This document shows positions 18,870 through 44,927 of a stretch of 48,891 nucleotides of DNA, in pieces; the stretch's first letter is position 1; the number at the start of each line of letters is the position of its first letter. The DNA is from Candidatus Multivoradales bacterium (lineage in GTDB: Bacteria; Acidobacteriota; Thermoanaerobaculia; Multivoradales; J023). Under the pieces are notes generated by a model. It saw only the letters and a list, made by a program, of their open reading frames with translations, was not told where the DNA came from and ran no database searches. The DNA lies in assembly GCA_965248925.1 (NCBI GenBank), contig CBDFLE010000003.1, forward strand, positions 1 to 48,891, in the 5' to 3' direction. Position numbers and translations under genes: made by a program.

Positions 18870-19202
18870 ATGACAGAGTTCCTTCTTAATGACCGCAAGA
18901 TCGTCAACGTCCGCCTGCCGAACGGCGCGGTGGCGCATGTCGAAGCTCGCGACTTCGGTGGCGAAGAGCGTATTGCTGCAGAGATTCCCAACTTTGAGGA
19001 ACTGATGACCCCGATAGAGGGAATCGCCTCGAGCCTGAGTCGTGTCTGGGACCGGGTCGCGCCCCAGAAGGCGAGCGTCGAGTTCGGGCTTCAGGTCGCG
19101 GTCGAGGCCGGCAAGCTGACCTCGCTTTTCGTCCAGGGCAGTGGCGAGGCAAACCTCAAGATCTGCCTGGAGTGGAGCCGACCGCCGTCATCCTCGGACT
19201 GA
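18870..19202 (+). CDS. Trypsin-co-occurring domain protein (Trypco1/CU044_2847-like)
   Basis: RBS AAGGAG plus ATG at 18870; signature P..ASVEFG..V.VE.GKL...V.G.GEANLKI.LEW; directly upstream of a trypsin-domain gene. Confidence 0.85.
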   Translation: MTEFLLNDRKIVNVRLPNGAVAHVEARDFGGEERIAAEIPNFEELMTPIEGIASSLSRVWDRVAPQKASVEFGLQVAVEAGKLTSLFVQGSGEANLKICLEWSRPPSSSD

Positions 19203-19221
19203 GGCACTGTCGCCTACAACG

Positions 19222-21963: not shown

Positions 21964-22058
21964 GAGTCTGAGTAGCAATGGAACAGAAACGTACGCTAAG
22001 CCGCGAGGATTTCTCTACCCAGGGTCCCGGGCATAATCGCCCAAAAATATACGCTCAG
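21963..22058 (+). repeat. Two orphan Tn3-type IR remnants (21963-22000; 22021-22058)
   Basis: ggagtctgagtagcaatggaacagaaacgtacgctaag resembles the 18244 IR; agggtcccgggcataatcgcccaaaaatatacgctcag resembles the 34157 IR. Confidence 0.6.
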
Positions 22059-22149
22059 CTTCCTTATGAGCCCGCAGCGATCCTTTGCATCGCAGCCTCG
22101 ACTTGAGTTCTGACAGCAGAGTTTTCGGGTTGCAGGGCAGCGGTGGAGA

Positions 22150-22485
22150 CCCAAGAGCCTGAAGCACCAAGGCCAGGTTCGATCGACGGATGGCCACTTC
22201 GGGATGGTCTTCGCCGAGGTTCTCAAGGTCCGACGCCAGCGTCTGCTCAAGAAGCCCCTTGGCGCCTTCAAGATCCCCAAGAGCTTGAAGCACCAAGGCG
22301 AGCCTCGTCCGGTGGATGGCTACTGAAGGATGCTCTTCGCCGAACGAATGAAGGTGCGATTCGAGAGCAAACTTGGAGAGCTTCCTTGCGCGAGCAAGAT
22401 CCCCGGCGGAGTGAAGCGCGAGCGCGATGCGCCTGGGCAGCTCTGTTCTCGCAGAATCCTTAGCATTCAGCACCGCCGGAGCCAT
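22150..22485 (-). pseudogene. TPR (kinesin-light-chain-like) protein fragment
   Basis: Two to three GEEHPSVAI..LALVLQALGDL repeats, then an unrelated tail; bounded by IR remnants. Confidence 0.7.
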
Positions 22486-26583: not shown

Positions 26584-26814
26584 GTGTCAGATTTGCAATG
26601 GCGGTGCGGGCTCCGAGCCCGCCCGCCTAGGTGTCATGAGGTGCTCGGCTGGTCAATCACGACTGGTTCGTGCCGCCATCAGCTCCCCAGCAGTCTCACG
26701 CAGTCCGGGGAGCTTGGGGTAGCGGGCGCATTCGTGCAAAAAGTTACGGTTTCTCGCGCCTCCGGGCTGCTGAGACGCTCGCAGAGCGTAACTTTTCGCA
26801 CGAGAACGGGTGGC

Positions 26815-29757
26815 CTATGAGTCGTCTGTGTCGATGAAGTAGGTGCCATTGGGCATGACGTGCTTGAACGGTAGCAACGAGATGTGGGAGAGCTCCTCGT
26901 CCTCGATCGCCTCGCCTTCGGCGCGAAGCCGGTCGACGGTCTGCCCGATCCTCACGGTGTTCCAGTAGAGGATCGCGTTCGAGACGAGGCTCAGGCAGCT
27001 CGCCTTGTTCATGATCTCGATGTAGTCGCCGGTCTTGAAGTCGCCTTGGTCGGCGAAGTGGATCCAGCGCGAGAGTCCTTGGCGGTGTTCGCCTTTGTTC
27101 AGCTGCCGCTGGACAGCTCGGCGGAGTTCTGGATCAGTGCAGTAGCGCAGGATGTAGTTGGTCTTGACGAGTCGGCCGAGGTGGCGAACGGCGTTCGAGA
27201 GCCGATCGTGAGGTGATCCGAGGGTGAGTCGCTGAACCACGACGTGCGCCGGCGCTGTGCGAAGCCTGAGCGACCAGGCGATCTGCATCATCGGATCCCA
27301 CTGCTCGGCGATCAGATCGAGGTCGACTGTGTTCTTGAGCAACGATCCGAAGTCACCTTCAGCCCGTCGCCCCGAGGGTCGGTATAGCTGTTGACTCTTC
27401 AGGTCCTTGATCCTCGGCATGAAGAAGTAGCCGAGAAGGTAGCAAAGGCCGAAGATGATCTCGGTATAGCCGTCCGTGTCTGTCGTGTGCTTCCCGGGGC
27501 GGAGGATTGTGTTGTTGTTCAGCAAGCCGTCGAGTACGTAGAGCGCCTCTCTCGGCCCGCACGAGATCGCGCGGGTGCCGAATACGGAGTACTGGTCGGA
27601 GATGTGTGTGTAGATACTGATGCCCTTCTCGTAGTACCCGAAATACCGTGGGTAGTACGAGGCGAGGAGGCTATCGGCTCGGATTCTGAAGCGCTGCGCA
27701 TCGGAGGACGACGTCTCGCCGTCCCCGTGGACCGAACTCAACGGCAAGCCATGATGCGCGTCAACGATGACTGAGTTGGCTGTCTGGATCGTCTCCTCGC
27801 GAACGTAGTGCTGGAGGACTCGACGGAGCATGTCCAACGTCACCTTCGGGACGCTCGCACTCATCGAGACCACGCCAAGGTTCGTCGCTTGAGAGATGAT
27901 CGCTGAGAGCAACGATCGGTAGAACTGCTTCGGCCGCGACTGATGGTCCTCGAGAGGAACGAAGCACCGCGAGAATCCCGTGGCACGATCCACATCCATC
28001 AGGAGCTGCTCGACTCGAACCAACGGCAGGCTCGCGTCGATGGTTTGTTGCAGCCGGCTTGGCGGCAGCTTCTTTGTGTCGTCGCGGCGTAGCTTGAGCT
28101 TGCCGCTTTCGACTCGGGCGAAACGATCGACTCCGTACCGACCGTTGGCCCGACGCAGAGCGTCCTCGCACTCACCAACGAGCCGATCACACACGCCATC
28201 CGATGTCGGGTGGCCGAGATCGTCGTACGAGTCCTCTTTCTCTTCGCCCCACCGCGTTTCACTGAGCAAGAGATCCCAGAACGAGACGTGCTCTTTGCTG
28301 TCCGGAATGTAGACGTCGCCCGAACGAAGTGAATCGCGAAGCGCGATCGCTAGGCCGGTCTCCCACGCGTTCCGGTTGAGCGAACCCGGTCTTTCTCCGG
28401 TCAAAGCCCCACGGAGCTCTCCCGGTACGAAGCTGCGCGGAGCGTTCGCCGGCAGGCTCTTGAGTTCCCCGTCGTCGAGCTGTCGCACGATCTGAATCGC
28501 CTTGAGCAACTCCTCGCTTCCGGCCTCGCCGGCGAACGGGAGGCGGACGAACTCTGCGAAGTACTTGCGAAGCGTGGGATACCGAGCGACCAGGCGGCTT
28601 CCGAGGCCATGCTCCTCGACCCACTGAAACTGCTTGAGGTCTTCGACCGATTCCCTGAGCCTCTCCTCCTCGGCCGAGTCCCAGAAGGTGTCCCGGGTTC
28701 GCGCCTCGTCCTCGGGCCAGGCCAGCAGTGCGTGCGTCGTGCGAAGGACCGCGTCGATGGCTCTTTTCTGTCGCTTCCGGAGCGCTCGGTACTGCTCCTC
28801 GTGCGCGGACTTCGCGTCGCGCCGCATGTCGAGCACGTACTTGTCGTGCATTTGAACGAGGTGGTCGAGAAGCGTCTTGCGCCGCTCGGAGAGAAAGCAA
28901 GTCATCAAGGCGTACCGCTTCGGATCGCGGAACCGTTTCAGGTCCGTGGCGTCGTACCCACGCGCAGTCTCAGCTAGGTAGGCAGCGAACGCGCCGTTGA
29001 TCTTCGGTCGCTCGAAGCCGAGTCGGAAGAACTCGTCGAGCTCGCGGTAGCGCTCAAGGTACCGCTTCATCGCGGCGGGAGTCGGGGACGGAGGGTACTC
29101 CTTGAGGCGACCGAAGAACGAGCGTTGATCTTCTGGCGGTGCCTCAAGGAAGGAGTCGATGCTCCGACGGAGTTCGGGAGCTAGTCCAGAGACGATCGAT
29201 TCGAAGAGCTGAGCGTGCGCCGCGTTGCAGACCGTGTTGACCAGACGATCCAGAGTGGAGGCCGCCGGGAGAACGATCCGCGTCCTCAAGAGCCGCCGTT
29301 CGGCCCGCTCGAATAGCGTCGCAGGGAGATCTCCATGATGGGCTTCGCCATCGAGCCAGTCCGTGAGCTCGTCTCGTGCGGTTTCGTCGAAACGCTGAAA
29401 GCCTGCGAGCTCGAGGAGCTTCCCCTGATGCTCTGACCGAGTCGCCTTCCTTTCCGGGGCCTCGACAAAGAGTGGCGCCGGCTGTCCGAGTTGGACGCAG
29501 AGATGGGCGACGATCTTCGGTGGCGCGTGCGTTGGGTCCCTCAGGAACCGACCGAACAGGCGCAGGGTGCATAACTGCAGCGCATTCGCCAGGCGATACC
29601 GACTCCGGAAGCCGCCACGCAGGTCGTCCACGTCGACTGTGTCGAGCGACCAGTTCCGCGTGAGTTCGTCATCGGACAACCGCTCTGGGAGAACGATCGG
29701 TCGCCGACGTCGTCGAGGGACCGGGAGATGCTCGTGAATGGGTTGGGGTTCGCGCAT
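26815..29757 (-). CDS. tnpA: Tn3-family transposase
   Basis: 980 aa; SSSDAQRF, HTTDTDGYT, QLNKGEHR DDE motifs. Confidence 0.95.
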   Translation of the reverse strand: MREPQPIHEHLPVPRRRRRPIVLPERLSDDELTRNWSLDTVDVDDLRGGFRSRYRLANALQLCTLRLFGRFLRDPTHAPPKIVAHLCVQLGQPAPLFVEAPERKATRSEHQGKLLELAGFQRFDETARDELTDWLDGEAHHGDLPATLFERAERRLLRTRIVLPAASTLDRLVNTVCNAAHAQLFESIVSGLAPELRRSIDSFLEAPPEDQRSFFGRLKEYPPSPTPAAMKRYLERYRELDEFFRLGFERPKINGAFAAYLAETARGYDATDLKRFRDPKRYALMTCFLSERRKTLLDHLVQMHDKYVLDMRRDAKSAHEEQYRALRKRQKRAIDAVLRTTHALLAWPEDEARTRDTFWDSAEEERLRESVEDLKQFQWVEEHGLGSRLVARYPTLRKYFAEFVRLPFAGEAGSEELLKAIQIVRQLDDGELKSLPANAPRSFVPGELRGALTGERPGSLNRNAWETGLAIALRDSLRSGDVYIPDSKEHVSFWDLLLSETRWGEEKEDSYDDLGHPTSDGVCDRLVGECEDALRRANGRYGVDRFARVESGKLKLRRDDTKKLPPSRLQQTIDASLPLVRVEQLLMDVDRATGFSRCFVPLEDHQSRPKQFYRSLLSAIISQATNLGVVSMSASVPKVTLDMLRRVLQHYVREETIQTANSVIVDAHHGLPLSSVHGDGETSSSDAQRFRIRADSLLASYYPRYFGYYEKGISIYTHISDQYSVFGTRAISCGPREALYVLDGLLNNNTILRPGKHTTDTDGYTEIIFGLCYLLGYFFMPRIKDLKSQQLYRPSGRRAEGDFGSLLKNTVDLDLIAEQWDPMMQIAWSLRLRTAPAHVVVQRLTLGSPHDRLSNAVRHLGRLVKTNYILRYCTDPELRRAVQRQLNKGEHRQGLSRWIHFADQGDFKTGDYIEIMNKASCLSLVSNAILYWNTVRIGQTVDRLRAEGEAIEDEELSHISLLPFKHVMPNGTYFIDTDDS

Positions 29758-29777
29758 GGCAACTCCCCCCGGTGAGC

Positions 29778-29890
29778 TGGTTCAAGAAAACGTCCGTTTT
29801 CGAGAAGCCCCAGAAATCGAACCGGAGGTCTGTTAAAACGGGGGTTTTGTGTATCTCGAAAACCACTCTTGAAACGATCCTATCGAAATG
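29778..29890. promoter_or_regulatory. Probable res site of transposon B
   Basis: Palindrome tcaagaaaacgtccgttttcgaga and AT-rich subsites between the divergent tnpA and tnpR. Confidence 0.55.
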
Positions 29891-29922
29891 CAACCATGGT
29901 CGCGAGTTTCGAGAGGACCTAC

Positions 29923-30522
29923 ATGCAAATTGGATACGCCAGAGTTTCGACCGAAGACCAGAACCTCGAGCTCCAATTCCGGGCACTCGAGAAGGACGGT
30001 TGTGAGCGAATCTTCACCGACAAGCTTTCCGGGGCTCGAGCCAAGCGGCCGGGGCTCGACGAAGCGCTCTCTCATCTCCGAAAGGGCGACGTGCTCGTAG
30101 TTTGGAAGCTCGATCGGCTAGGCAGAAGCGTGCGCTCCCTCATCGAGCTGGTGGAGGGACTCGAGGCCAACGGCGTCCATTTTGCGAGCCTGACGGATGC
30201 GATCGACACGACGTCGCCGGCGGGCCGGTTCTTCTTCCACGTCATGGCGTCTCTGGCACAGATGGAGCGCGAACTCACGGTGGAACGCACGCGGGCCGGC
30301 TTGGCGGCGGCCAAGAAGCTCGGCCGTGTCGGCGGGCGACCGCGAAAAATGACGGCTGCGAAAGTAGAGTCCGCGAAAACACTGCTAGCTCAAGGCACGC
30401 CTGTTCGAGATGTCGCAGAAAGCCTCGCCGTCTCGGTTCCGACTCTCTACCGCTGGTTGCCCGCGGACCAGCGGACGGGCTCTGGAAGGGCGGTGGGTAA
30501 CCCCTCGCTGTCGGTGGACTAG
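29923..30522 (+). CDS. tnpR: Serine resolvase (TnpR)
   Basis: RBS GAGGA plus MQIGYARVST, VWKLDRLGRS, GGRP, C-terminal HTH. Confidence 0.93.
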   Translation: MQIGYARVSTEDQNLELQFRALEKDGCERIFTDKLSGARAKRPGLDEALSHLRKGDVLVVWKLDRLGRSVRSLIELVEGLEANGVHFASLTDAIDTTSPAGRFFFHVMASLAQMERELTVERTRAGLAAAKKLGRVGGRPRKMTAAKVESAKTLLAQGTPVRDVAESLAVSVPTLYRWLPADQRTGSGRAVGNPSLSVD

Positions 30523-30638
30523 GGGCTAATCTGAGGAGGGATAGCTGATGTCGAGTAAGAGTGCGAAGAGTATAAGCGAGGGGCAGACAACCGCCGCGAC
30601 CAGGTGGCCAGCCTCGACGAGGTGGAGAGGATTATCCT

Positions 30639-31229
30639 GTGAGCCGCGCTGAACTGGTTCTTGAGTACCTGACGGTCCTTCTCAGCGGGCCGCCTGTGGT
30701 GGCCGTGACGGTGTTTGTGCTCGTCTGCGTTTTTCGCGAGGACATCAAGGATCTGCTCGGCCGGGTCGCCCGGATCAAGTTTCCAGGCGGGGAGCTATCG
30801 ACACAGGCCGCCCGCGAAGAACAAAGCGGCGAGGAGAAAGCGCCGCCGAGTGTCAAGGCGAGCGCAGCCGACCTACCCAAAGGTGTGACGCTCACGCATG
30901 AGGATCAAGGCCGTATTGTTCAGCTCGTGCAGGCGCAGCGCGCCCAGGCGACGCTTTGGGAGTACCGCTATCTCGGCTACTACCTGGTGCCTGGAACGCA
31001 GCGCGTTCTGGACTGGCTCGCCGGCCTGCCGCAGGCGACGTCGATCGGGGCTTTTGATGCCTTCTGGTCGACGATCATCCCAACCGGCCGCGAGCGGGTC
31101 GCCATTATGGGGGCGCTCGAGCAGCATCACCTGGTGCAGCGCACCGGCGAGCTGGTCGAAGTCACGCCCAGGGGCCACGAGTACATCCAATGGCGCGGTC
31201 CTCTCGAGCTGCCGAGTGCAGACGAATAG
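30639..31229 (+). CDS. Hypothetical membrane-anchored passenger protein
   Basis: RBS GGAGAGG; N-terminal TM helix; C-terminal winged-helix-like ending (LVEVTPRGHEYI). Confidence 0.7.
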   Translation: MSRAELVLEYLTVLLSGPPVVAVTVFVLVCVFREDIKDLLGRVARIKFPGGELSTQAAREEQSGEEKAPPSVKASAADLPKGVTLTHEDQGRIVQLVQAQRAQATLWEYRYLGYYLVPGTQRVLDWLAGLPQATSIGAFDAFWSTIIPTGRERVAIMGALEQHHLVQRTGELVEVTPRGHEYIQWRGPLELPSADE

Positions 31230-31601
31230 CGAGCGGAAACATGGCGATGACTTTGGAGCAGCGCTATACGATCTCGGCGTGCTGCCGAGAAGTTCATCAC
31301 TGCCGACCGCACGAATCGAGAGGCACAGCACGAAAGGAGGCGCGCGCCGGCATGAGGACGCCTACCGTGAACATGACCCGGATGAGCCTTGCTTCGCGGT
31401 GGCGCTTCCCCCTGAATCAGACGAGGAGTTGCCAGGTAGCCTTCCAGTGGACCAGTGGTGACCGGTCTGTCAACGGTATTCCGACGCTGCGGATCGTTCG
31501 GGCTGGACTTCTTACAAGCGCTCGGCCGCCCGGAGCGCCATGATCGAGTCCTTTAAGCGGGGGGAAACCGTAACTTTTTACACGAATGCGCCCGCTACCC
31601 C

Positions 31602-32780
31602 ACATTGGTCCCCACCAAATGTCACGGCACCTCCGCGGCGCCGTCAGCGCCCACGAGATCTCCGCGCCAGGAAACCAACACATCACTGCCGCCAAACTCA
31701 ACCAGGCCAGCGCCGATGTCATCGATGCGTTCATGGGACTCGACGTCGCCCAGCTCTGGGGCGATGGCTCGAAAGTCGGCGCGGATGGAACCCAAATCGA
31801 CACCTGGGACGATAACCTCCTCGCCGAAACCTCTGTCCGTTACGGCGGATACGGAGGCATTGCGTACCGTCACATCTCCGACACCTACATCGCCCTGTTC
31901 TCCCACTTCATCCCATGCGGCGTGTGGGAAGCCGTGTTCATCTTTGCCGGGCTGCTCAAGAACGAATCGAAGACGATCGAGCCTGAAGAGATCCATGCCG
32001 ATACCCAAGGCCAATCGTTGCCGGCGTTCGGGCTCGCAACCATGCTCGGCGTCGAGCTGCTCCCACGGATCCGGAACTGGAAAGACCTCATCTTCTACCG
32101 GCCAAACGCCGACAGCCGCTACGACCACATCGACATACTCTTCGGCAAAAGCGAAGTCATCGACTGGAAGCTGATCGAAACCCACTGGATCGATCTCATG
32201 CGCGTCGTCATCTCCATCCGCCAAGGCCGCATCTCATCATCAGCGCTGCTGCGACGACTCGGAAACCACTCCCGCAAGAACCGGATCTACAAGGCCTTCC
32301 GAGAACTCGGCCGAGCCATCCGCACCACCGTGCTGCTCAGATACCTCTCACAAACCGAACTTCGAGACAGCATCACCGTTGTCACCAACCGCGTCGAGTC
32401 ATTCCATAACTTCTCGAAATGGCTGTCGTTCGGCAACGCCGGCATCATCGCCGACAACGACCCCGACCACATGGAGAAAATCATCAAGTTCAACGAGCTG
32501 CTCGCCAACTGCGTCATCTTCTACAACGCCGCCCAGCTCACCAACGTTCTCAACCAACTCGCTAGTGAAGGCCAGCCCGCCGAACGAGACGACGTCGCCG
32601 CCTTGTCGCCATACACCACCAAACACGTCCTTCGATTCGGCGACTACGTCCTCGACCTCACACCACCAAGCGAAGTAATCAACGGACACCTTCATCTACA
32701 CACCGACACCGCAGAACCCACCCTCGGTACACAACCCAAGGTTTGAATGGCGGGTTTCGGCCGTATTCCGGTCGTCCCCC
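31602..32780 (+). pseudogene. tnpA: Truncated second copy of transposon A (3' part of tnpA plus right IR)
   Basis: 1179 bp apparently identical to 11176-12354, starting immediately at the right IR of transposon B. Confidence 0.93.
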
Positions 32781-33057
32781 TCCTTGAGCACCCTCGGGCC
32801 GTGAGTGAGTTGGTCATGCCGCGGCCTTGAGCGGGATTTCAGCAGCGGGGCCTGTTCCGGGGCGTTGGGGCTGTGTGATTCTCCCTTGCTAGGCTCATGA
32901 GTGCTTATGTACAATGTGCGGCGCAGCGTTGCCCGAATCAGCTTGGATTTTTCCAAGGGGTGGCGATGTGACAATTAACCGGAAGTGCCTGCAGGGCACA
33001 CATTCGACAAACTAGGCCCTGCGAGCGCGCTTCCCTGACAAAGGGAGGAAGCTCTCA

Positions 33058-33264
33058 ATGAGCGATCTAGTGCCCTCAGATCGGTCCCCGCCCCACGAAC
33101 CTCTCCCCAGGCAGCCCCCTCGCGGCTTCAAGCTTAAGTTTCAGATCTCGGGCTTTTGGCCTAGAAGCAGATCTTTGCCTAGGAGGAAGTCTCTACTGCG
33201 ACTTCTTCTAGTGATCCTGGGAATCCTGTTGCCCCTGATGGCTCGGGTCCTGGACTGGATCTAA
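33058..33264 (+). CDS. Small hypothetical membrane protein
   Basis: RBS GGGAGG; 68 aa with a C-terminal hydrophobic helix. Confidence 0.45.
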   Translation: MSDLVPSDRSPPHEPLPRQPPRGFKLKFQISGFWPRSRSLPRRKSLLRLLLVILGILLPLMARVLDWI

Positions 33265-33278
33265 GCTGCTTGAAATGC

Positions 33279-33312
33279 AAAAAACCCGTCCGCGGAATCA
33301 GTCGCGGGCGGG
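33279..33312 (-). terminator. Intrinsic terminator-like hairpin
   Basis: Minus strand cccgcccgcg-loop-cgcggacggg followed by T6. Confidence 0.5.
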
Positions 33313-33587
33313 TCCTTGTCTGCTGGTGAATGCCTGTAGGGCACACATCCGACACTACAAGGAACACCAAAAGGAGAGTTTTTGGTGGGTCCAGAAGGAA
33401 AAAAAGTGCGCCCGGAAGCCGAAGGGATCTTCGCAGAACCTTCTTTGAAGGAAGCTGCCCTTGTGTGTTGCCCCCAACATGGCGGAGGTGGCCACCGACC
33501 TAGTCCATCAGCCCGAAATGACCATATAGGGCTGCAAAACCAGGAGCTAGCGTCCAATCGAGCGATCGAGGGTGAGGATCGCCTCAT

Positions 33588-34148
33588 ATGAACGCGGAAA
33601 AGGAGGCGAGCTTTCGGAAGCTGTACGACCATCACTACCGGGATGTTGTCGCGTGGCTTCGTCGTCGCGGAATGGATCGCGCCATGGCGCAGGATGTGTC
33701 CCAAGAGGTATTCATTCGCGTCTACAAGGGGTTAGATGGTTTTGAAGGCACTCATTCTTGGCCGTGGATCAGAGTCATCGCCAAGAACGCTTGGGCGAAC
33801 TGGCTACGGGATCGAGCAACACAAAAGCGGGGTATGGAAGTAACCACGCTCGATGAAGTTCCCGAACTTGACTTTGACGCGACCACACTGTGGGGTTCAC
33901 GAACACCTTCTCCAGAAGAAAAGGCTTCTTGGAACGAGAAACTCGCACGTTTGAACAAGATCCTCGGTACGTTTCCAAAACGTAGCTGTGAGGTGTTTCT
34001 CTTGCGCTATCGCGATGGGATGAAGTACCGGGAAGTGGCACTTCATTTGGGTATTTCGATCGACACGGTCAAGTCTCATCTTCATCAAGCCCGCCAGCGT
34101 ATCCGAGAAGCAGATCTCGAAGGTCTAGACGAGGAACACCAAGATTGA
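33588..34148 (+). CDS. ECF-type sigma-70 factor
   Basis: AQDVSQEVFIRVY (region 2), WIRVIAKN, and region 4 YREVALHLGISIDTVKSHLHQAR. Confidence 0.92.
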   Translation: MNAEKEASFRKLYDHHYRDVVAWLRRRGMDRAMAQDVSQEVFIRVYKGLDGFEGTHSWPWIRVIAKNAWANWLRDRATQKRGMEVTTLDEVPELDFDATTLWGSRTPSPEEKASWNEKLARLNKILGTFPKRSCEVFLLRYRDGMKYREVALHLGISIDTVKSHLHQARQRIREADLEGLDEEHQD

Positions 34149-34156
34149 TTGAGGCG

Positions 34157-35448
34157 AGGGTAGCGCCCAGAATCGTGCGGATTTATACCCTAAGCGGTCG
34201 CGCTCCCTCGTCCGCTAGCTCCGGACCAGGTGAGCTGGTATTCGCCGTAGAGCAGGACGTTGTCTCAGGAGATCGGGCATGCGGAGGTCCAGCGCGTCCT
34301 TGGCCTCGCCCGGATCGCCCAGCACTCCGGTTCCAGCGCACTAGTCTAAGATGGGACGGGAGGCACGAGAATGGTTGAACGTAGAAGCATGGTGGAGCAG
34401 CTGCGAGAGGAGCTCTTGGACGATGAGACAAGCCTCTGTCGAGCCCTTCGCCGTGCGGTCGTCCTCGCGCATTCTCTAGACAACGCGCCGTTCAAGCAGT
34501 GGGTAGAAGGGGAACTCGAGGGATATGGGGGCGGCAAACCAGTGCCGGCGTATCGCTGTCTGTCGTCACCGATTCTTGCGACAATCACGAACGGCGTCGC
34601 AATCGTGAAACGACAGCCGTTGGCGCTCGACGGCTTTACGCCAGAGATGAAGGACAGCCTCAAGACGCTCTACCTGCGGTACCCGGTCGGGGAGCTTGAG
34701 CATCTGGCGGCCGGCGGCTCCGAAGACCTGAAGGAATTCTGGCCAGGCGACTTGGTCCGTCTTGCGCATCAGCTGCTGACGAGCTTGGCTGATGGCGCGA
34801 TGCTGATGGAGGTCTACCGGCCCATCCCGCAGCATGCAATTCGAGGTGCCCTCGAAGCTGTCAGAAACAAGCTCCTGCAGTTCGTCCTCGAGCTTGAGAG
34901 GTGGCCCACGGATGCACCCCTGGAACCGGTCCACCAACGAGAGCTCGCACAGCACATCACCAACAACATCTACGGTGGCCAGAACGCCATCGCCAGCGGA
35001 AGCGGTTTCAGCCAGTCCGTTCAGATGGTCTCGGAAGGCGATCTCGGCTCCCTGCGCAAGGCGCTCGAGGATCTGGGCCTTCCAGGCGAGGAAGTAGACG
35101 CGGGGGTGGCTGCAGCCGAGAAGGACGGGACGCCAGGAGGCGGGAGACTTGGCCCTCGGGTTGGGAAGTGGTGCGCCTCCCTCATGGAGAAGGCCCTGAC
35201 GGGGGCGGTGGTCGGAATCGGGCGGGCCGAAGCCGAGGCGGCCATCCAGGTCGCCCGGCAGTTCTACGGGCTCTAGCGCGCAGCGAAGCCCCGATTCTCA
35301 GCGCAGAAGGCTTGTTCTGCGCTGAGCTTGCGCCCGACTCGTCGCAGAATTCACACTGATTCGGCCTCATAGCGCCCCGAATTCTATTCGCAGAATCATT
35401 AGTGTTCGAACTTAGCGTATAAATTCTCACGATTCTGGGCGCTACCCT
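34157..35448. mobile_element. Non-autonomous Tn3-type mini-element (1292 bp) with 5-bp TSD
   Basis: 38-bp IRs 34157-34194 and 35411-35448 (35/38, ending TAAG); direct repeat AGGCG at 34152-34156 and 35449-35453; no transposase inside. Confidence 0.88.
34371..35276 (+). CDS. AbiTii-domain protein
   Basis: N-terminal SL..ALRRA..LA..L....F..WV..ELEGY......P.YR pattern of the AbiTii family; RBS GGGAGG. Confidence 0.8.
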   Translation: MVERRSMVEQLREELLDDETSLCRALRRAVVLAHSLDNAPFKQWVEGELEGYGGGKPVPAYRCLSSPILATITNGVAIVKRQPLALDGFTPEMKDSLKTLYLRYPVGELEHLAAGGSEDLKEFWPGDLVRLAHQLLTSLADGAMLMEVYRPIPQHAIRGALEAVRNKLLQFVLELERWPTDAPLEPVHQRELAQHITNNIYGGQNAIASGSGFSQSVQMVSEGDLGSLRKALEDLGLPGEEVDAGVAAAEKDGTPGGGRLGPRVGKWCASLMEKALTGAVVGIGRAEAEAAIQVARQFYGL

Positions 35449-35455
35449 AGGCGAC

Positions 35456-35755
35456 GTGAATTCCCTTCCCCCCCACCCATCCGTTAATATAGAATTTACG
35501 GAAGTGAGAGCCACAACACACAGCCCACAAGGACCCCCCGGCGAGCAGCTCCCGCTCTGCGAGGCGCCGCGACTCGCTGACCCCTGGGGCCAGCGATGGG
35601 CCGTCAAGAGCCGATCGCGGCCCGATACGGTCTACACCGTCGCACTCTCGGCCGGCGGCCGGCAGTGGGGATGTAGCTGCCCCAGCTGGATCTATCGCCG
35701 CGCTCGCTGCCCACATATCCGGCAGGTGCAACGCTCCGGGGAGCTAGGGCCGTGA
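35456..35755 (+). CDS. Small SWIM zinc-finger protein
   Basis: W.V.S.S....YTV.......WGCSCPSW..R...CPHI (CxC..CxH); GTGA-coupled to the integrase; start may be GTG 35504. Confidence 0.7.
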   Translation: MNSLPPHPSVNIEFTEVRATTHSPQGPPGEQLPLCEAPRLADPWGQRWAVKSRSRPDTVYTVALSAGGRQWGCSCPSWIYRRARCPHIRQVQRSGELGP

Positions 35756-36864
35756 CCCGGCGATCGACGGTAGAGCCCGAGGTCTTGAGCGTCGAGGTCC
35801 TCGACCTGGTCGACCCGAGGGAGGGTGGCCAGCGGCGGGCCGAGGAACGCGCCGAGCTGGTGGCCACGGACGCCCAGCGGCGGGCCGAGGAGTTCATCCG
35901 CGAGCAGATCCCGGAGGGCACCCGCAAGGCGCGGCTGAAGGCCAGGCGCTATTGGGTGGCCTGGCTACGGCTCGCCCACGGCCTCGAGGAGCATTACCCG
36001 GTCGCGCCGGCGCTGTTGTTGGATTTCATCGAGAGCCACCTCAACGGCCTGCCCGAGGCCGTAGACACCGCCCTACAGGCCGAAGGCCGCAAGCGGCCGG
36101 GTACGCATACCCTGGCGACGATCGAGGCCCGTGTGAGCCATCTGAGCAAAGCGCACCAGGCCACGGGGTGCGAGTCGCCGGCCACCGATCCGCGATGCCG
36201 CGAGCTGCTCGCCGCGGCGCGCCGGCAACGCGCGCGGAAGGGAGGCCAGCTGCAGAAGAAAGCGCTCACCCTCGATCTGCTGGAGAAGCTCTTGCGGACC
36301 TGTGAGGTGGATATCGAGGTGGGTGATGCGCGCGATCGGCTCGCCGCTTACCGCGACCGGGCTCTACTCCTGGTGACCTGGGCCGCCGGCGGTCGCCGGC
36401 GCTCCGAGGCCGTGTCCCTCTGCGTCGAAGATCTCCGCAACGACGCTGGCGAATATGTTTGGACGCTCGGCCACTCCAAGACCAACCAAGACGGCAGCGG
36501 CCAGGAGACCTACCCCATCGCCGGCCGCGCGGCCGAGGCGCTAACCGCCTGGCTCCAGATCGCCGGCATCTCGGCCGGGGCGGTGTTTCGCGCCATCGAT
36601 CGCCATGGCCATCTCGCCAGCCGCGCCATGGTGCCGCGCTCCCTGGCCGAGATCGTCAAGTACCGGGCCGGGCGAGCTGGACTCGATCCGGCCGACTACA
36701 GCGGCCATTCGTTGAGGTCGGGGTTTGTCACCAGCGCCGGCCGGGCCGGGGTCAGCCTGCAGGAGGTGATGCAGCTCTCAGGACACCGCACACCCGCCGT
36801 GGCCATGCGCTACCATCAGGCTGGCGACGTGCTCCGGTCCAGGGCTGCGAGGCTGGCAGGCTAG
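35752..36864 (+). CDS. Tyrosine recombinase (Cre-like phage integrase family)
   Basis: RDRALL...GRRRSE, HSKTNQ, GHSLRSGF, SGHR...MRY catalytic set. Confidence 0.92.
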   Translation: MTRRSTVEPEVLSVEVLDLVDPREGGQRRAEERAELVATDAQRRAEEFIREQIPEGTRKARLKARRYWVAWLRLAHGLEEHYPVAPALLLDFIESHLNGLPEAVDTALQAEGRKRPGTHTLATIEARVSHLSKAHQATGCESPATDPRCRELLAAARRQRARKGGQLQKKALTLDLLEKLLRTCEVDIEVGDARDRLAAYRDRALLLVTWAAGGRRRSEAVSLCVEDLRNDAGEYVWTLGHSKTNQDGSGQETYPIAGRAAEALTAWLQIAGISAGAVFRAIDRHGHLASRAMVPRSLAEIVKYRAGRAGLDPADYSGHSLRSGFVTSAGRAGVSLQEVMQLSGHRTPAVAMRYHQAGDVLRSRAARLAG

Positions 36865-36911
36865 AGAGCCAGAGACAATTCACCGGCCGACGATCGACGA
36901 AACAGAGGTCT

Positions 36912-37247
36912 ATGATGACGTTCAAGGATGGCGAGCAACGATCCGCCGCGGCCGCGGCGATCATCCACCGAATCCACAAACCCCTGCCCTGGCCACCGGA
37001 CGAAACCGAGCCCGTCTTGACCGGCGCTGAGCGGGTACTGTGGCTCACGGCCGAGGCGATCGAGTACGGCACGGCTGGCCCCGTTCTAGCCGAGCTGGAC
37101 CGACTCGACCCTAGCAACCTACGGGCGGTCGGTGAGCTGCTCTGTGCCGTCGCCGAGGACTCCGGACTCCTACCCGAGCAGCCGCGACACGCCGTGGCCG
37201 CCTGGCTCGACCGCCAGGCAGCAGAGCACACGATCACTACCGCCTGA
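36912..37247 (+). CDS. Hypothetical helical protein, similar to the C-terminal domain of 7001-7795
   Basis: RBS GAGG plus MMTFKDGEQR; ERVLWLTAEAI...LAELD compares with ERVVTLAAWAI...FSEIL. Confidence 0.6.
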   Translation: MMTFKDGEQRSAAAAAIIHRIHKPLPWPPDETEPVLTGAERVLWLTAEAIEYGTAGPVLAELDRLDPSNLRAVGELLCAVAEDSGLLPEQPRHAVAAWLDRQAAEHTITTA

Positions 37248-37260
37248 CGCATAACGCTCA

Positions 37261-37364
37261 GGCCGACAGCGGGCACTCGTTGAAGTCGGGATTTGTCACC
37301 TCGGGCGGGAGTCAGCTTGCAGGAAGTGATGCAGCTGTCCGGGCACCGCACGCCAGCCATGGCC
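37261..37364 (+). pseudogene. Degenerate integrase 3' fragment
   Basis: Encodes SGHSLKSGFVT...GVSLQEVMQLSGHRTPAMA; truncated by the IR at 37371. Confidence 0.75.
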
Positions 37365-37370
37365 GGTGGC

Positions 37371-37644
37371 CTTAGCGTAGGTTTTCGGTCCGTTGTTCCT
37401 CGACCCCCGATTCTACGCCCTCTTTCGCTCGGCCCCACACTTGGCGACCCTCCGTCAAGCAAAAAGGCACGGTAAGGGGCCGATTCGAGGCTCGACGCAG
37501 GGGGCTTACCGTACCTTTTCGCACGCTCGAGGCTGGAGCCCCCGTTGGACCCCCATCTCTACAGAATCTAACGCTAAGACCTCCGCTTCTGCCCTGCTAC
37601 CGCCTGCTTAGAGTGAATTTCTGTAGCTTCGGGCCTGATACCCC
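37371..37644 (-). repeat. Stack of three Tn3-type right-end IRs (37371-37408, 37505-37542, 37607-37644)
   Basis: Each reads CTTA...CCCC over 38 bp. Confidence 0.7.
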
Positions 37645-38002
37645 AAGAAGCACCCCCCGACCACGGGGACGCGCCGATCACAGCGACCTCAGCCGCCTGG
37701 CGGATTCGTCGCGGGGTTGTCTGGGGCTCGCCAGCTCTATTTTCCTTCGACCCCTACCCCACCGACACGCCCCGCGGGCGCATGCGTTCTCACGAACGGC
37801 GCTAATTGAGGGGGGGGGTCACAGGATATTCCTGTCACGTTTTTTACTCCTTTATTAAGAAATAGACCCCCCTCCCCCTAATCGACTAATGCGCATGGGT
37901 CTGAGCCCGCGGGGCTGTCTGCCCGGGGTGGGGGTGAATATCTCGCGCCGGGAATCCTCCCCTCCCGCATCTCCACCACCCGGCAGCCTCACTCTTGCGC
38001 CG

Positions 38003-38170
38003 AGCGCGCCGGGCTCGACCCGGCCGACTACAGCGGCCACTCCCTGGGGTCTGGCTTCGTCACCACCGCCGGCCGGCCGGGGGTCAGCCTGCAGGAGGTC
38101 ATGCCCCTCTCAGAGCACCGCACGCCAGCCGTGGCCGGTGGCCTTAGCGTAGTTTCTCGGTCCGGTGATT
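38003..38170 (+). pseudogene. Degenerate integrase 3' fragment plus decayed IR
   Basis: AGLDPADYSGHSLGSGFVTTAG..GVSLQEVM..., followed by the same gccggtggccttagcgtag junction as at 37361-37380. Confidence 0.75.
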
Positions 38171-38314
38171 GTCGAAGGCCAGAATTGCTAGGACTCTGGG
38201 CACTGCCAGTATGCAAAAGTAAGCCAGGCGATCGGGAATCAATGATGACTTTTGTTAAGTCTGCGGCCGGATTGGGTGGCGGGTCGACGCCGCGCCCCGA
38301 CCGGGTAATCAATA

Positions 38315-38818
38315 ATGACTTTTAGTAACTATTCGAGCGTTTGGGGCGAGCGGCGCCGCCGCTGCTCTGAGACCTGCCGCGACGGTCGGCGCTGCTATGC
38401 CGGGATCTACGCCGGCGGGCGGTGTGTGGCCCATCAACCCGGCTGGAACGACCGCGAGCCGCAAGGCCGACTGCCCACCCAGGCCGACGCCGCCGAGGGC
38501 CTCGGCCTGACCGTCGCTGTGATGCCCGGCGGGTACTGTGGGCAAGAGCATCGAGTTATCGTCTGCCGTGGCACGAACAAGGCCGGCGAGCCCTGCCGGC
38601 GCTCCGCGGCCCTCTCGGGTTACTGCTGGCAGCACGACCCCGACCCACAGCGAGCCGCTGAGCGTGAGAAGAGCCGCGAGCGGCCCGACACCAGGCGCTT
38701 ACCGGACGGGCGCCGCTGGTGCTTGACCCACGACTGCGAGCGGCCCTGTAAGGAGTGCGGCACCGAGGGTATTGGCGGCGCTGGCCGAGGGCAGGGGCGC
38801 AAGCCGAAGGCCGCATGA
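38315..38818 (+). CDS. Cys-rich zinc-finger protein (DUF5763-like C-x9-C-x8-C-x2-H repeats)
   Basis: CSETCRDGRRC...CVAH, CRGTNKAGEPC...GYCWQH, CLTHDCERPCKEC. Confidence 0.65.
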   Translation: MTFSNYSSVWGERRRRCSETCRDGRRCYAGIYAGGRCVAHQPGWNDREPQGRLPTQADAAEGLGLTVAVMPGGYCGQEHRVIVCRGTNKAGEPCRRSAALSGYCWQHDPDPQRAAEREKSRERPDTRRLPDGRRWCLTHDCERPCKECGTEGIGGAGRGQGRKPKAA

Positions 38819-39234
38819 TGATCCCGCCACAGCATGCGCGGCTGCCATCGCAGCTCGACGAATTCGACCTCGACCAGCTTCTACGGGCCGCCGGCCGCGC
38901 GGCCGAGGCACTGACCGCCTGGCTCCGGATCGCCGGCATCTCGGCCGGGGCGGTCTTTCGCGCCATCGATCGCCATGGCCATCTCGCCGGCCGCGCCATG
39001 GTGCCGCGCTCCCTGGCCGAGATCGTCAAGTACCGGGCCGGGCGAGCTGGACTCGATCCGGCCGACTACAGCGGCCATTCGTTGAGGTCGGGGTTTGTCA
39101 CCAGCGCCGGCCGGGCCGGGGTCAGCCTGCAGGAGGTGATGCAGCTCTCAGGACACCGCACACCCGCCGTGGCCATGCGCTACCATCAGGCTGGCGACGT
39201 GCTCCGGTCCAGAGCCGCGCGGCTGGCGGCCTAG
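38815..39234 (+). CDS. Truncated tyrosine recombinase (C-terminal catalytic half only)
   Basis: 38889-39234 is nearly identical to 36519-36864, is in frame and is ATGA-coupled to the zinc-finger gene. Confidence 0.7.
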   Translation: MMIPPQHARLPSQLDEFDLDQLLRAAGRAAEALTAWLRIAGISAGAVFRAIDRHGHLAGRAMVPRSLAEIVKYRAGRAGLDPADYSGHSLRSGFVTSAGRAGVSLQEVMQLSGHRTPAVAMRYHQAGDVLRSRAARLAA

Positions 39235-39293
39235 ACCACGCTGTTGCGAACATTCTTAGTCCGAGAATTGCCGAAGTTGGGAGCCCCATGTCG

Positions 39294-39899
39294 TTAGTCC
39301 AACTTGGTCATCACCCCGATCGGTATCCGATCAATACCGGAGCTAGATTCATCGTAGCGCAGCTCGATCACCCAAACACCAAGTCCAGGCGTCTCGATTC
39401 GGAACTCGTGTACGCCCAAGGGAATATCACGCACAAAGCCACCCGATTCGCTAAGCTGACCCAGGAGAATGCCGTCTAGCCACACGGCTGCACCACCATG
39501 TTCGCGAGAGCTAACAAGCCACATGTGCACCAACGACTGCTTCTTGCAGAGATCATATTTCAAGTGTGAAGACACTTTAGTGAAACCGCTGGTCCATGAC
39601 ACGCGATAGGTCTGCAAGAGGTCATCTTTCAGCCCAAGCCGAATTAGTGTATCGCCCTTTTGAACGACAAGAAGCTGATCGGAACTATCGGGCTCGTGAA
39701 GGGACAACTTCGCGAACTCTTTCGCGTATACCCTAAGCTCTTCTTTCGTCATCTGGCACTTCAAACCACTGACGAAGTGACCTGACTTTGCCCATGGCTT
39801 AAAAGAGCCGACAAATGGCGGCGATAGGCAGGCCGCAGAGCTAACAACCAATAGTGCGAGCAATAGGAGTCCTAGGACTGGTGTCCATCCTCTCTTCAT
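39294..39899 (-). CDS. Putative immunity lipoprotein for Rhs 2 with PEGA-like C-terminus
   Basis: ATGA-coupled to the toxin; lipobox SAAC; GAAVWLDG..LG........IPLGVHEFRIE. Confidence 0.7.
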   Translation of the reverse strand: MKRGWTPVLGLLLLALLVVSSAACLSPPFVGSFKPWAKSGHFVSGLKCQMTKEELRVYAKEFAKLSLHEPDSSDQLLVVQKGDTLIRLGLKDDLLQTYRVSWTSGFTKVSSHLKYDLCKKQSLVHMWLVSSREHGGAAVWLDGILLGQLSESGGFVRDIPLGVHEFRIETPGLGVWVIELRYDESSSGIDRIPIGVMTKLD

Positions 39900-42800
39900 C
39901 GCGCTTCTGGACACTTGGCTTTCCTGTTCTTGGATGGCTGCCCCTTATTGCCCCACCCAGGCGTTTGCCCTGACCCTACTACGTCAGGAGGCGTAAGGCC
40001 GCAGGTCTTGGCGATGGTGCTGGCGAAGGAGTTGCTGTTCGGCCCTCGAAGGAGCCGATAGCCGGATGGGTTTGGATAGTTCAGAAACTGTTGCCCAACA
40101 CACGGGTCCGTCATGCAGTCCTCCACACCACTCCAGGGTCCACACGTTGTTCTGGGGTCGTCTACCCTGTCGGTGTCGAACCAGTCATTCTTGAATTTGC
40201 ATCCCACACCCTTAACTTTCTGCAATCCGTAGGTCGTGCTTACGGATTTGCCCGAGGGGCCTCCAGAGTTTTGCTCTGTCTCGATGAAGCAGTGCTTGAA
40301 GGCTGCCAAGGATTGCCCTCGCGTGATCGGCGTGCAACAGACCCTTGATTTCTCGCCAGTCGGGTCGACGAATAAGAGAGGGTTCGCTGTGGCGTAGAGG
40401 TAGGGGTGGAAGTCACCTTGAGCACCTAGCGGGTCGGGTCGGCTATAGCTGCCGGTGCCAGATTGATACCACCGTAGAACGTTGAAGAAGGAAGGGCTAC
40501 CCACATCCCAAGTTGCATCCGCCCACTGCCCCGGAAGGCGCAGGAAAACGCCTGCGTCCCCGGCATTCGCGAAGTCACTGCCGAAGGGTTCGAATCCGCC
40601 ACTCCAGTTCGAGCCGCCAACACTGCTAGAAGCTAGCACCGGTGTGCCAAGGTGGTCTGCCGTGAGGTGGGTTACACCGGTCCCGCTGGTCTGGGCTACA
40701 GGCTGTCCCCCGAAGTAGAGCACTGCATTGGCCTCGGTGGCACCCACTCGCCGCTGCAGGACGCCATCGGCACTGTAGGTGGCCGATGTGGCCGTCTCGG
40801 CCATGCAGCTACTGGCTCCGGGATCACCCCAAGCGCTGATGTCGCCGCTTTCAAAGCCATCGCAGAAGAGAGCGTTGCCCGAAGTGTCGGGCTCGCGGCC
40901 GACTGCTTGGCGTAGGTAGCTGCGACCGTCGTACAGCATCGTCGAGCTGGCCTGTGCCGAAGGGTGATCAATGGCCGACAAGCGGCCAGCATCATCGAAA
41001 GTGTAGGTCACCGGGTCGCCGTTCTCGTCGACCTCGATTTGGTTGCCGGCTGCGTCGAAGGTGTAGACGCGACTGCCACCCGCACCGAGTGCAATCTGGT
41101 CGAGTTTCGCGGTATTGCCGCTAGCGGCAGCGTTGGCGAGGTACTGGTAGATGTCGGTAGCGCCGTCCCGCGTTTCGCTGAGACGGTTGCCGATTTTGTC
41201 GTAGGCCCAGGCCAGAGCGCCCCAAGGGCCGTCGCCCTGGGTGAGGAAATACTGGTAGTCCTGGTAGGCGTAGGTGCGGTTGTTCAGCGAATCGAGCAGA
41301 TCGCCGATGACGGTGATGTTGCCGACCCCATCGGTAGCGTAGTCCCAGTCGAGCAAGGTGCCGCCAGGGCCGACCGCTGTGATGCTGGCGGGTTGATAGC
41401 GGCTGTCGTGCTGGCGGCTTTCGGTCACACCATTGCCGCGCGTCAGCTGGCGCAGTGGGCCGATGGGTTGGTAGAGGGCTCCCGTGACGATCGCTTGGAT
41501 GCCCTGGCCTGGCACCTCGGCATCGAGCGTCAGGTGACGGTCAGCGTGATCGAAGGTGTAGATTGCCCTCACTCCACCAGGGTACAGGATCTCGCTCTGG
41601 TTGCCGTTGGTGTCGAAGGTGTACGCCAGCTCGCCGTCTTGGGTCATGCGCCCGAATCGATCGTACTGATAGTCGATCGGCTGGCCGTCACGCTCGATCC
41701 GGGTCAGCCGGCCAAGGCTGAAGGGCACCAGCGCGTCATCGTAGGTGTAGGTCACGTCGAGGGTGTCGTCGGGGTAGTCGACCAGAGTGACCCGATCCAG
41801 CTCATCGAGAGTGCGCAGGGTGGAGATGCTGCGTGCATCGGTCGTCTCTGTGCGCTCGCTGTGCTCGTTGTACAGATGGCTTGTGACGCCAGAGACCTCG
41901 GAGGTCTCGCGGGTCAGCAGATCTCGATCGCTGTGGACGTAGCTGGTGACCGTGCCCTCTGGGTCCGTCACCGAGGTCAGATGATCCTGAACGTCAAAGC
42001 CGTAGGTCGTCACGGCTTGGCCGCCGGCCGCGCCGCCGAATGGCTGGCTGACCGTGGTCAATCGGTCGAGTGGGTCATAGCCATAGACCGTGCTGGCTGC
42101 CGCAGTCTGGCCCGCCGATGGATGGTTCGCGTCCCACAAGCGTTCGAGGTCGCCATCGCAGTTGTAGGCGTACTCGGTGATCGCCTGTTCGGGGCTGCCC
42201 GCGCCTTCGATCATCTGGTCGAGATGGCAGCGGGTCGAGTACAGGTAGTCGGTAGTCGACGCACTCGTCCAGCTCGCGCCGTCCCAGCTTTGCAGCTCTT
42301 CGCGCACCCGGTGGCCAAAGCCATCGAGGGTGTAGAAAGTGCGTTCGATGTGGCTCCCCGGCAGGTCATCGGGCTTGCGTTCGATGGACACCAAGCGGCC
42401 TGTGGGGTCGTAGCCGTACTCGAGCACGTTGCCGCGCGGCAGGACGGTTTGGAAGAGGTCGCCAAAGACCGTGTAGCGCTGCTCGGTGATCAGGTCTTCG
42501 GCCATTACCGCGCCTTTCTGGATGCTGAACAGAACACGATTGAGCGGGTCGTACTGCGTTTCGCTGGCTACGCCGTTGGGGTCGGTGACGGAGGTTCGGC
42601 GGTTGAAGGGGTCATAGCCGAAGAGGGAGCTACCGATCAGCGGATCGGTACGGCTGGCCAGCACCAGGCCGCCACGGGCAGCGTCCCAGGCGCGGGTGGT
42701 GACATCGGCGGTGCCATAGCCGGGTAGATCGCGGTCTTCGGGTTGGCCCTCGGCGGTGTAAGTGGTCGTGGTGGTGTAGCTGAAGACTTGGCCGTCTTCT

Positions 42801-44650: not shown

Positions 44651-44663
44651 AATAATTCTCCTT
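40517..44663 (-). repeat. 4147-bp inverted repeat, copy 2 (rhs core)
   Basis: Reverse complement aligns without gaps to 12662-16808. Confidence 0.9.
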
Positions 44664-44840
44664 GTTTCTAGCTGCTACCCACGTCTCTTAGACTCTGTAG
44701 AGCGAGCGCGGGTTCCGACATCGTTGGTCTTGAGCTAGAACGGACCTTTGTTCCCGATCCCAATGACCCCGAAGATAGTAAGTTCTATTGATAATACGCA
44801 ATTTCTCTGTCGTTTGCAAGCCTCTTGAGCGCTGACGCGA

Positions 44841-44927
44841 GCTGCAGGAGGTGATCCGGCTGGCCGCACACCCGCCGTGGCCATGCCCCGTCACCAGGCC
44901 GGCGACGTACTGCGGGCAGGAGCGCTC
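44841..44927 (+). pseudogene. Degenerate integrase 3' fragment
   Basis: ctgcaggaggtgat...cacacccgccgtggccatgc...caccaggccggcgacgtactgcgg matches 36757-36840 with indels. Confidence 0.65.

Follow-up and report, generated by a model that had tools for sequence, protein, structure and literature searches.

The window analysed here corresponds to the complete contig C3 (48,891 bp), one of six in a genome assigned to Candidatus Multivoradales bacterium, and the subject of this study is a 1,292-bp unit within it that carries a single gene for an AbiTii-family protein between two inverted repeats. Our analysis reveals that the unit is a real element, namely a non-autonomous Tn3-family element of the type called mobile insertion cassette (MIC). 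We propose, at a probability of roughly 0.72, that the unit is a deletion-derived, non-autonomous cassette of a Tn3 lineage whose terminal repeats start with AGGG, and that its AbiTii cargo is intact.

The unit extends from repeat tip to repeat tip over positions 34157-35448 and, together with its target-site duplication, comprises the following features (MAG, metagenome-assembled genome; ECF, extracytoplasmic function):

34152-34156, no strand: left target-site duplication AGGCG, 3 bp past an ECF sigma gene's stop codon
34157-34194, plus strand: tnpA-proximal terminal inverted repeat, 38 bp, AGGG...CTAAG, 36/38 identical to the consensus of the MAG copies
34195-34277, minus strand: 3′ remnant of a Tn3-family tnpA, reading ...DNVLLYGEYQLTWSGASGRGSATA*, with its stop inside the repeat
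34278-34370, plus strand: spacer upstream of the cargo gene, with a Shine-Dalgarno-like GGGAGG at 34358-34363
34371-35276, plus strand: cargo gene, encoding an intact 301-aa AbiTii-family protein (Pfam, PADLOC, alignment, AlphaFold2)
35297-35326, plus strand: perfect 12-bp hairpin without a T-run, 21 nt past the cargo stop codon
35411-35448, minus strand: distal terminal inverted repeat, 38 bp, AGGG tip, 37/38 identical to the MAG consensus
35449-35453, no strand: right target-site duplication AGGCG, directly outside the distal repeat

The two inverted repeats, detected by a repeat search, have 38-nt arms that are complementary at 35 of 38 positions (92%). Both arms end at their inner side with CTAAG and contain the conserved inner TAAG of Tn3-type ~38-bp repeats, and both start with AGGG, the canonical GGGG tip of the Tn3 family being absent. 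The pentamer AGGCG abuts both repeat tips as a perfect duplication. The repeats cannot be extended outward, because the next bases are unpaired, indicating that the tips are AGGG and that the duplication is exactly 5 bp. The only long open reading frame (ORF) in the unit is the cargo gene, preceded at 7 nt from its ATG by the Shine-Dalgarno-like sequence; the remaining 16 ORFs of at least 30 aa overlap the AbiTii frame or the repeat regions. The unit has no transposase gene of its own, and the AbiTii ORF is its only passenger. Downstream of the cargo gene, the 134 bp preceding the right repeat have no similarity found to anything, and the 146-nt distal end folds no better than shuffled sequences (z −1.05); the 12-bp hairpin is the sole standout in it and may represent the transcript end.

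The unit is neither a chance resemblance nor an assembly artefact. A search with the outer 21-mer, allowing up to 3 mismatches, finds two sites in the window, both of them the unit's own, against 0.00 matches expected by chance (100 shuffles), and the same two sites only in the whole 7.98-Mb genome. A looser scan of the six contigs (up to 14 mismatches in 38 nt) adds two distant matches, at 22021-22058 and at a single end of contig C1 sequence. Positions 33300-35509 are reproduced, with no mismatch, by Logan contigs of two runs that belong to the same sample, which argues against an assembly artefact; runs X5 and X6 leave the stretch uncovered for the most part. The explanation that no element exists can appeal to the presence of the unit in one copy and to nothing further; it is refuted by the shuffles, by the occurrence of the same repeat in independent assemblies, described below, and by the Logan contigs, and we consider it next to impossible.

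The left end of the unit retains the 3′ end of a transposase gene. In particular, window positions 34156-34277 align with the tnpA-proximal ends of related elements in MAGs at 78% identity over 122 bp (E 6e-21). The minus-strand translation of the remnant terminates, with its stop within the repeat, in the sequence given above, the counterpart in the MAG copies reads ...WDNVLLYGEYQLNRSLVRSERLSV*, and the MAG counterpart stretches align, by tblastn, to residues 813-976 of a Tn3 transposase encoded in the window. Because the match extends beyond the repeats and the translation is transposase-like, the left repeat is identified as the tnpA-proximal end. The surviving part of tnpA amounts to about 25 codons with an in-frame stop just upstream, indicating that it is not expressed as a transposase; the AbiTii gene lies in the unit interior on the opposite strand. 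We infer from these alignments that the unit descends from an element encoding a DDE_Tnp_Tn3 transposase, and it is very probable that an internal deletion left the last ~25 codons of tnpA.

The AGGG-tipped repeat recurs in other genomes. An exact scan of one genome per species, using as query the 20-mer that starts at repeat position 2, recovered 15 loci in 7 MAGs, and a metagenome scan added one contig. By their titles, the MAGs comprise five Bryobacterales, one Thermoanaerobaculia, and one 'Deltaproteobacteria', the last label being doubtful because the RpoB of this MAG is 81% identical to that of the host. All 20 distinct ends with the 20-mer core are preceded by A, with outward flanks that differ, indicating that the AGGG tip belongs to the element; on this comparison, the tip is best regarded as a mark of the lineage and not as a local mutation. 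Full 38-mers ending in TAAG are present at 10 of the 20 ends, and the rest are cut after 23-31 nt. In the MAG elements, tnpA runs from a start immediately interior to one repeat into the opposite repeat, where it ends, and there is no resolvase between the two. The pairs of ends span 71 bp to 1.8 kb, and all 5 pairs are internally deleted, each differently, so that their interiors hold N- and C-terminal transposase pieces only, one with an unrelated insertion sequence inside.

Some of these loci have further features. Among the MAG copies (L006-L016), two on one contig share an identical 8-nt right flank. Four of the 20 related ends (L020 6000-6323; L008 7621-7646; L006 6000-6023) have an AGGG repeat truncated after 24-26 nt and followed by TGGGGTATCCA..., a continuation that looks like the tip of a different Tn3-type repeat and suggests that one element inserted into, or recombined with, the end of another. 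The smallest derivative seen, of 71 bp (L013 6000-6070), has two AGGG repeats overlapping at the inner CTTAG/CTAAG.

A near-complete relative is present in the host's order. A search of 201 genomes of the order, using as query a 111-aa C-terminal transposase piece from the MAG elements, gave matches in 5, with 58-70% identity in four other genomes and at most 39% identity for the host's own transposases. The best match, in genome G002, belongs to a 6.5-kb element with AGGG-tipped 38-bp repeats (34/38), a perfect 5-bp AAGAC duplication, two passenger ORFs, and a tnpA frame of 928 aa that contains a full DDE_Tnp_Tn3 domain (PF01526, E 7e-106). The G002 transposase is at most 41% identical to any Tn3 transposase in 72,556 plasmids (PLSDB), and a blastn search of the same plasmids with the 38-bp repeat of the unit gave chance matches only (E = 5). 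The nearest named plasmid transposase (41% identity to the G002 tnpA product) is on Tunicatimonas pelagia plasmid NZ_CP120684.1 (locus L131, 5700-5760), where the transposase is followed by a repeat-like 38-mer that ends in CGCTAAG and has a TAGG/AGGT tip, not GGGG, no second end being located; non-GGGG tips may be wider in the branch of the T. pelagia and G002 transposases. An initial annotation, made from the letters of the sequence, had described a transposase-less Tn3-type element of the present dimensions, repeats, and duplication, with an AbiTii gene as cargo and membership in a Tn3 subfamily with atypical AGGG ends. Each of these statements holds: the dimensions by the repeat search and the sequence, the transposase-less Tn3 type by the tnpA remnant and the true target duplication, the subfamily by the 20 related ends and the G002 element with its tnpA and 5-bp duplication, and the cargo by the following domain matches.

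The cargo protein is an AbiTii homologue with a conserved C-terminal extension. Specifically, residues 6-191 match Pfam AbiTii (PF18864; E 4e-30, 105.9 bits against a curated cut-off of 27.6), and the PADLOC AbiTii model matches with E 1e-31; NCBIfam gave no match for the ORF. A HMMER pass over 1.84 billion cluster representatives, with the cargo protein as query, gave 2,850 matches at E ≤ 1e-3, 1,050 at ≤ 1e-10, and 26 at ≤ 1e-30, with identities of at most 36%, and the best 150 matches are mostly ~300 aa long and aligned over most or all of the query. An alignment of 51 sequences has nine invariant columns (W44, E48, G51, Y52, P59, Y61, R62, G202, and W267), all held by the cargo protein, since it is one of the 51 rows. 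Residue E48 fits the highly conserved glutamate described for the AbiTii domain (Anantharaman et al. 2013, PMC3710099). The AlphaFold2 model (mean predicted local distance difference test score 90.3) shows an alpha+beta N-domain, a disordered G-rich linker at residues 204-216, and four C-terminal helices at residues 225-298. HEPN models do not match the C-terminal part, and the 51-sequence alignment has no conserved His or Arg-x(4-6)-His in the C-terminal columns, which together rule out that the protein is an AbiTii-HEPN fusion. Residues 186-301 matched, in the ESM Atlas, AbiTii-bearing clusters or clusters without a common Pfam family (0.89-0.90).

The cargo gene has no close relatives in a peptide scan of genome contigs, and a word-index protein search returned the query only. 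The family profile matches 1 of 300 genomes of the order, the host itself, in which it matches once, and 0 of the 299 others. The absence of the family from the 299 other genomes indicates that the gene was imported, consistent with arrival on a transposon, and the gene is, as judged from these profile searches, foreign to the host's order. In run X6, which is from another study, low-depth contigs are ~95% identical to 34727-35068 and 35090-35307, the match stopping at 35307, short of the right repeat.

The stand-alone form of the gene appears to be usual. At E ≤ 0.01, the PADLOC model for AbiTi matches nothing in the host genome (completeness 96.9%), and no second gene is present within the unit. 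Four plasmid homologues (in Pantoea, Shewanella, Ralstonia, and Agrobacterium; 24-28% identity) have differing neighbours, with no AbiTi-sized annotated neighbour in gene tables that are incomplete, and with conflict genes (RES, HEPN, DUF3800, and others) beside the homologues in 3 of the 4 contexts. The end-to-end alignment with a large ~300-aa family and the lack of a partner in these contexts together indicate that the stand-alone form is a common architecture, so that a missing partner is not odd. The initial annotation was correct that an AbiTi partner is absent, an absence that is no anomaly.

These observations can be assembled into a probable history. The parent would have been a transposon of an AGGG-tipped acidobacterial Tn3 branch, with tnpA read toward the present left repeat, and the internal deletion would have spared, besides the tnpA remnant, both 38-bp ends, still intact, and a single passenger. 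Tn3-type copy-in transposition would have brought in the unit or its parent and duplicated AGGCG downstream of the ECF sigma gene. To move again, the unit would require a cognate TnpA supplied in trans and, as it contains neither a res site nor a resolvase, resolution of cointegrates would fall to host recombination. The cargo would be a self-contained, single-gene abortive-infection or conflict protein, in which the AbiTii N-domain could have a sensor or adaptor role and the conserved helical module at the C-terminus an effector or oligomeriser role.

Some of our results weigh against this reading, with respect to both mobility and cargo. On mobility, the unit is single-copy in its genome, and no cognate transposase is present in the 7.98 Mb: the Tn3 DDE domain has 5 matches in the host genome, the best host transposase is 39% identical to the C-terminal piece of the lineage over 98 of 111 query residues, and the repeats of the host's Tn3 elements match the left repeat of the unit at 21, 15, and 12 of 38 positions. 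The inner part of a Tn3-family repeat is the part bound by transposase, and the nearest host element (26716-31601) matches the repeat of the unit at 16 of 22 outer and 5 of 16 inner positions. None of the 5 MAG repeat pairs has a 5-bp duplication, for which rearrangement between copies is one possibility, and recent simple transposition of this lineage is therefore documented only in the unit and in G002. The G002 tnpA has only the last half of DUF4158, ~80 N-terminal residues being gone, so that there is no demonstrably intact partner among the elements found. A blastn search with 33300-36900 over 300 genomes of the order revealed no empty site and no second insertion in the 299 others (it matched conserved gene fragments, one stray repeat in genome G223, and, on the host's contig C1, a paralogue of the right flank that starts 23 bp beyond the duplication), and neither an empty site nor a second copy was found in the 72,556 plasmids (megablast with 33000-37000). 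The initial annotation had presented the unit as mobilised in trans, a claim that these results do not bear out; with no helper, a single copy, and no empty site, such mobilisation is conjectural. The repeat search that it had suggested recovered 20 related ends and other derivatives; a full tnpA with the exact repeat is absent from all 15 genome loci and the one metagenome locus. An alternative history, which we place somewhat below even odds, is decay in place: a ~4.2-kb transposon (repeat, tnpA, AbiTii gene, repeat) would have inserted, made the AGGCG duplication, and later lost tnpA, the 1,292-bp unit never having moved as such; the outcome would look identical to the present arrangement. 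The deletion origin evident in the tnpA remnant, the single copy without a helper, and the prevalence of deletion derivatives in the lineage (5/5 MAG pairs, each different) fit this history, as does the drift of the repeats from the family consensus by 2 substitutions on the left and 1 on the right, which implies some age under either history. Against decay in place, both ends are near-consensus (36 and 37 of 38), and Tn3-derived cassettes are known to be mobilised (PMC4133298, PMC4337579), both being points of a general nature. Movement as a mini-element, as opposed to decay in place, is in our judgement an even call, and the unit is probably stranded today.

On the cargo, no ~300-aa AbiTii protein has, to our knowledge, been tested so far, a Foldseek search of the PDB gave no match at E ≤ 0.001 and suggests no biochemical activity, and no sigma-70 consensus promoter was found upstream of the gene. 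Lactococcal AbiT, moreover, requires both AbiTi and AbiTii (PMC13064643). The passenger could be something other than a defence gene, namely a plasmid-maintenance or addiction factor, an anti-mobile-element conflict protein, or an inert passenger. Its location on a plasmid-like contig, which encodes DnaB and ParA and is densely populated by Tn3 elements and RHS genes, would accord with such a role, as would the lack of an AbiTi partner in the genome, the lack of any activity known for the AbiTii domain or of a PDB fold match, and the proposal (PMC3710099) that AbiTii is an accessory N-terminal domain on effectors and not an effector. This alternative is nonetheless unlikely in view of the intact frame with all family-invariant residues kept, the large size and constant ~300-aa length of the family, the assignment to AbiTii by both Pfam and PADLOC, and the proximity of homologues to RES, HEPN, and DUF3800 genes in three of the four plasmid contexts. 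A single-gene abortive-infection or conflict function is, on these features, the moderately favoured prediction.

Elements of comparable organisation are known. TnXax1-derived MICs in Xanthomonas carry genes for transcription activator-like effectors (TALEs) and other effectors and have a GAGGG tip (PMC4337579), and this documented tip indicates that an AGGG tip is no bar to Tn3-family membership. Like the unit, the TnXax1 MICs have passengers between Tn3-family repeats, no transposase, a 5-bp duplication, and a non-GGGG tip; unlike the unit, which has a defence-family gene, 38-bp repeats, one copy, no helper, and an acidobacterial host, they carry virulence effectors, have repeats of up to 92-97 bp, and are numerous alongside TnXax1. 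Tn3-derived cassettes and miniature elements are mobilised in trans with 5-bp duplications (PMC4337579, PMC4133298). [quoted passage not shown] TIMEs in the narrow sense measure 262 bp and are multicopy, gene-free, and of demonstrated mobility (PMC4133298), whereas the unit is 1,292 bp and single-copy and has a tnpA remnant. With its size, its one gene, and its one copy, the unit is not a miniature inverted-repeat transposable element or TIME in the strict sense (less than ~300 bp, gene-free, multicopy). In the literature searched, which did not extend to subscription journals and was judged for the most part by titles and the opening lines of abstracts, we found no description of a Tn3-type cassette with an Abi gene. 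The repeats of IS1071 are much longer than 38 bp, the repeat length in the MAG lineage, whose transposase is at most 41% identical to plasmid-borne Tn3 transposases in PLSDB. As in the MAG relatives, IS1071-type minimal elements have the order repeat-tnpA-repeat and no resolvase (PMC4133298, Figure 5 legend). What is new in the present case is the repeat and transposase lineage, the acidobacterial host, and the defence-family gene as sole cargo, the kind of element being already described.

The cargo, with 301 aa and a conserved ~110-aa C-terminal helical extension, differs from lactococcal AbiTii, which has 213 aa. The AbiTii domain, comprising the N-terminal ~185 residues of the cargo, is shared with AbiT of Lactococcus lactis (Bouchard et al. 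2002, cited in PMC13064643), which is a two-gene system, whereas the genome of the cargo is without AbiTi. The AbiTii-HEPN fusions c2405 and Ymh (PMC3710099) resemble the cargo in having an N-terminal AbiTii domain with the conserved glutamate and a C-terminal module, and differ from it in that this module is HEPN, which the C-terminal part of the cargo resembles neither by domain match nor by a conserved His or Arg-x(4-6)-His.

The contig that carries the unit has genes for a DnaB-type helicase and ParA and is probably a plasmid. That the host is an acidobacterium follows from a 515-aa RpoB segment encoded on contig C6, with 86% identity to a MAG labelled Acidobacteriota, 73-85% to MAGs labelled Thermoanaerobaculia, and 69-71% to those labelled Bryobacteraceae or Solibacteraceae. 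To the left of the unit, the ECF sigma gene occupies 33588-34148; to the right, 23 bp beyond the unit, is a module comprising a SWIM zinc-finger ORF and a tyrosine recombinase (35476-36864) that recurs twice, at 93-94% identity, on contig C1 (29.5 kb; 1-1300 and 18656-20044) and has a sharp left boundary, at CCGTTAATATAG. The contig is crowded with Tn3-type elements and has at least 7 further solitary or distantly paired ends, and the unit is the sole Tn3-type element on it with a clean target duplication. In one Tn3 element (7960-12354), tnpA occupies 9255-12320, and the repeats, of the GGGGGAYGACCGG type, are at 7960 and 12354. A second (26716-31601) has tnpA at 26815-29757, a resolvase gene at 29869-30522, and GGGGTAGCGGGCGC-type repeats (37/38), and abuts a truncated copy of the first tnpA (31586-32746), with 31599-32780 being 100% identical to 11173-12354. 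Neither element has a 5-bp duplication at its outer flanks. Canonical Tn3-type 38-bp ends at 18244-18281 and 37371-37408 (33/38) bracket a 19.2-kb span containing the sigma gene and the AbiTii cassette as well as a trypsin-STAND gene and both Tn3 pieces; the sequences flanking it, GATCT and GATTC, resemble each other without being identical, and no matching transposase is present inside.

Solitary Tn3-type ends of several classes, some 20 bp apart, are present at 18455-18492, 21963-22000, 22021-22058, 37505-37542, and 37607-37644. The end at 18455-18492 matches, at 36/38, the repeat of a Tn3 element on contig C5. The end at 22021-22058, whose presence the initial annotation had pointed out, starts with AGGG and matches the left and right repeats of the unit at 25/38 and 26/38, respectively; it overlaps the 3′ end of a tetratricopeptide-repeat ORF (22015-22485, minus strand), and a search of the four smaller contigs (C1-C4), allowing up to 11 mismatches, recovered no partner of this end. 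A match to TATACCCTAAG at 39727, inside an unrelated ORF and with no repeat-like outer part, was taken as chance.

Other features of the contig include a 4,150-bp inverted duplication (12659-16808 and 40517-44666, 93%) of two RHS-repeat genes (1,602 and 1,584 aa); over 20 stretches paralogous to it, with 72-99% identity, are spread over contigs C5 and C6. In one of these cases, positions 12355-16803 match a C5 segment at 99.4% identity, about 1.7 kb past where the Tn3 element of that contig ends. Tyrosine-recombinase 3′-end fragments (LQEVMQLSGH...) recur five times from 36757 to 44872, as 31-nt repeats at 36757, 37317, 38089, 39127, and 44842, in the right half of the contig, which is rich in RHS genes and in which 36519-36818 also equals 38889-39188; these fragments may be traces of recombinase-linked RHS tip swapping. 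The product of 19141-21963, of 940 aa, combines a trypsin-like peptidase domain at its N-terminus with an nSTAND3 NTPase domain; its only PADLOC match is the protease part of RT-Protease_XI, and it is a candidate STAND-type conflict protein.

These findings carry modest practical weight, since elements of this kind have been described before. A broader and rather doubtful extension is that AGGG-tipped elements form an undescribed, resolvase-less acidobacterial Tn3 branch whose derivatives serve as single-gene shuttles, the unit being a complete stand-alone AbiTii abortive-infection module moved from replicon to replicon as a 1.3-kb cassette by a helper that need not stay in the recipient. Defence genes travel on large elements such as phages, integrative and conjugative elements, and Tn7-like transposons, and the unit, with one gene between two 38-bp ends, would be among the smallest vehicles for a defence gene. 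It offers a compact, intact ~300-aa AbiTii protein from a family of 2,850 clusters, for which a single-gene test is well defined, because the lactococcal system needs two genes. The AGGG-tipped ends, together with the near-complete relative in G002, likewise provide a handle on whether position 1 of a Tn3 repeat can be A.

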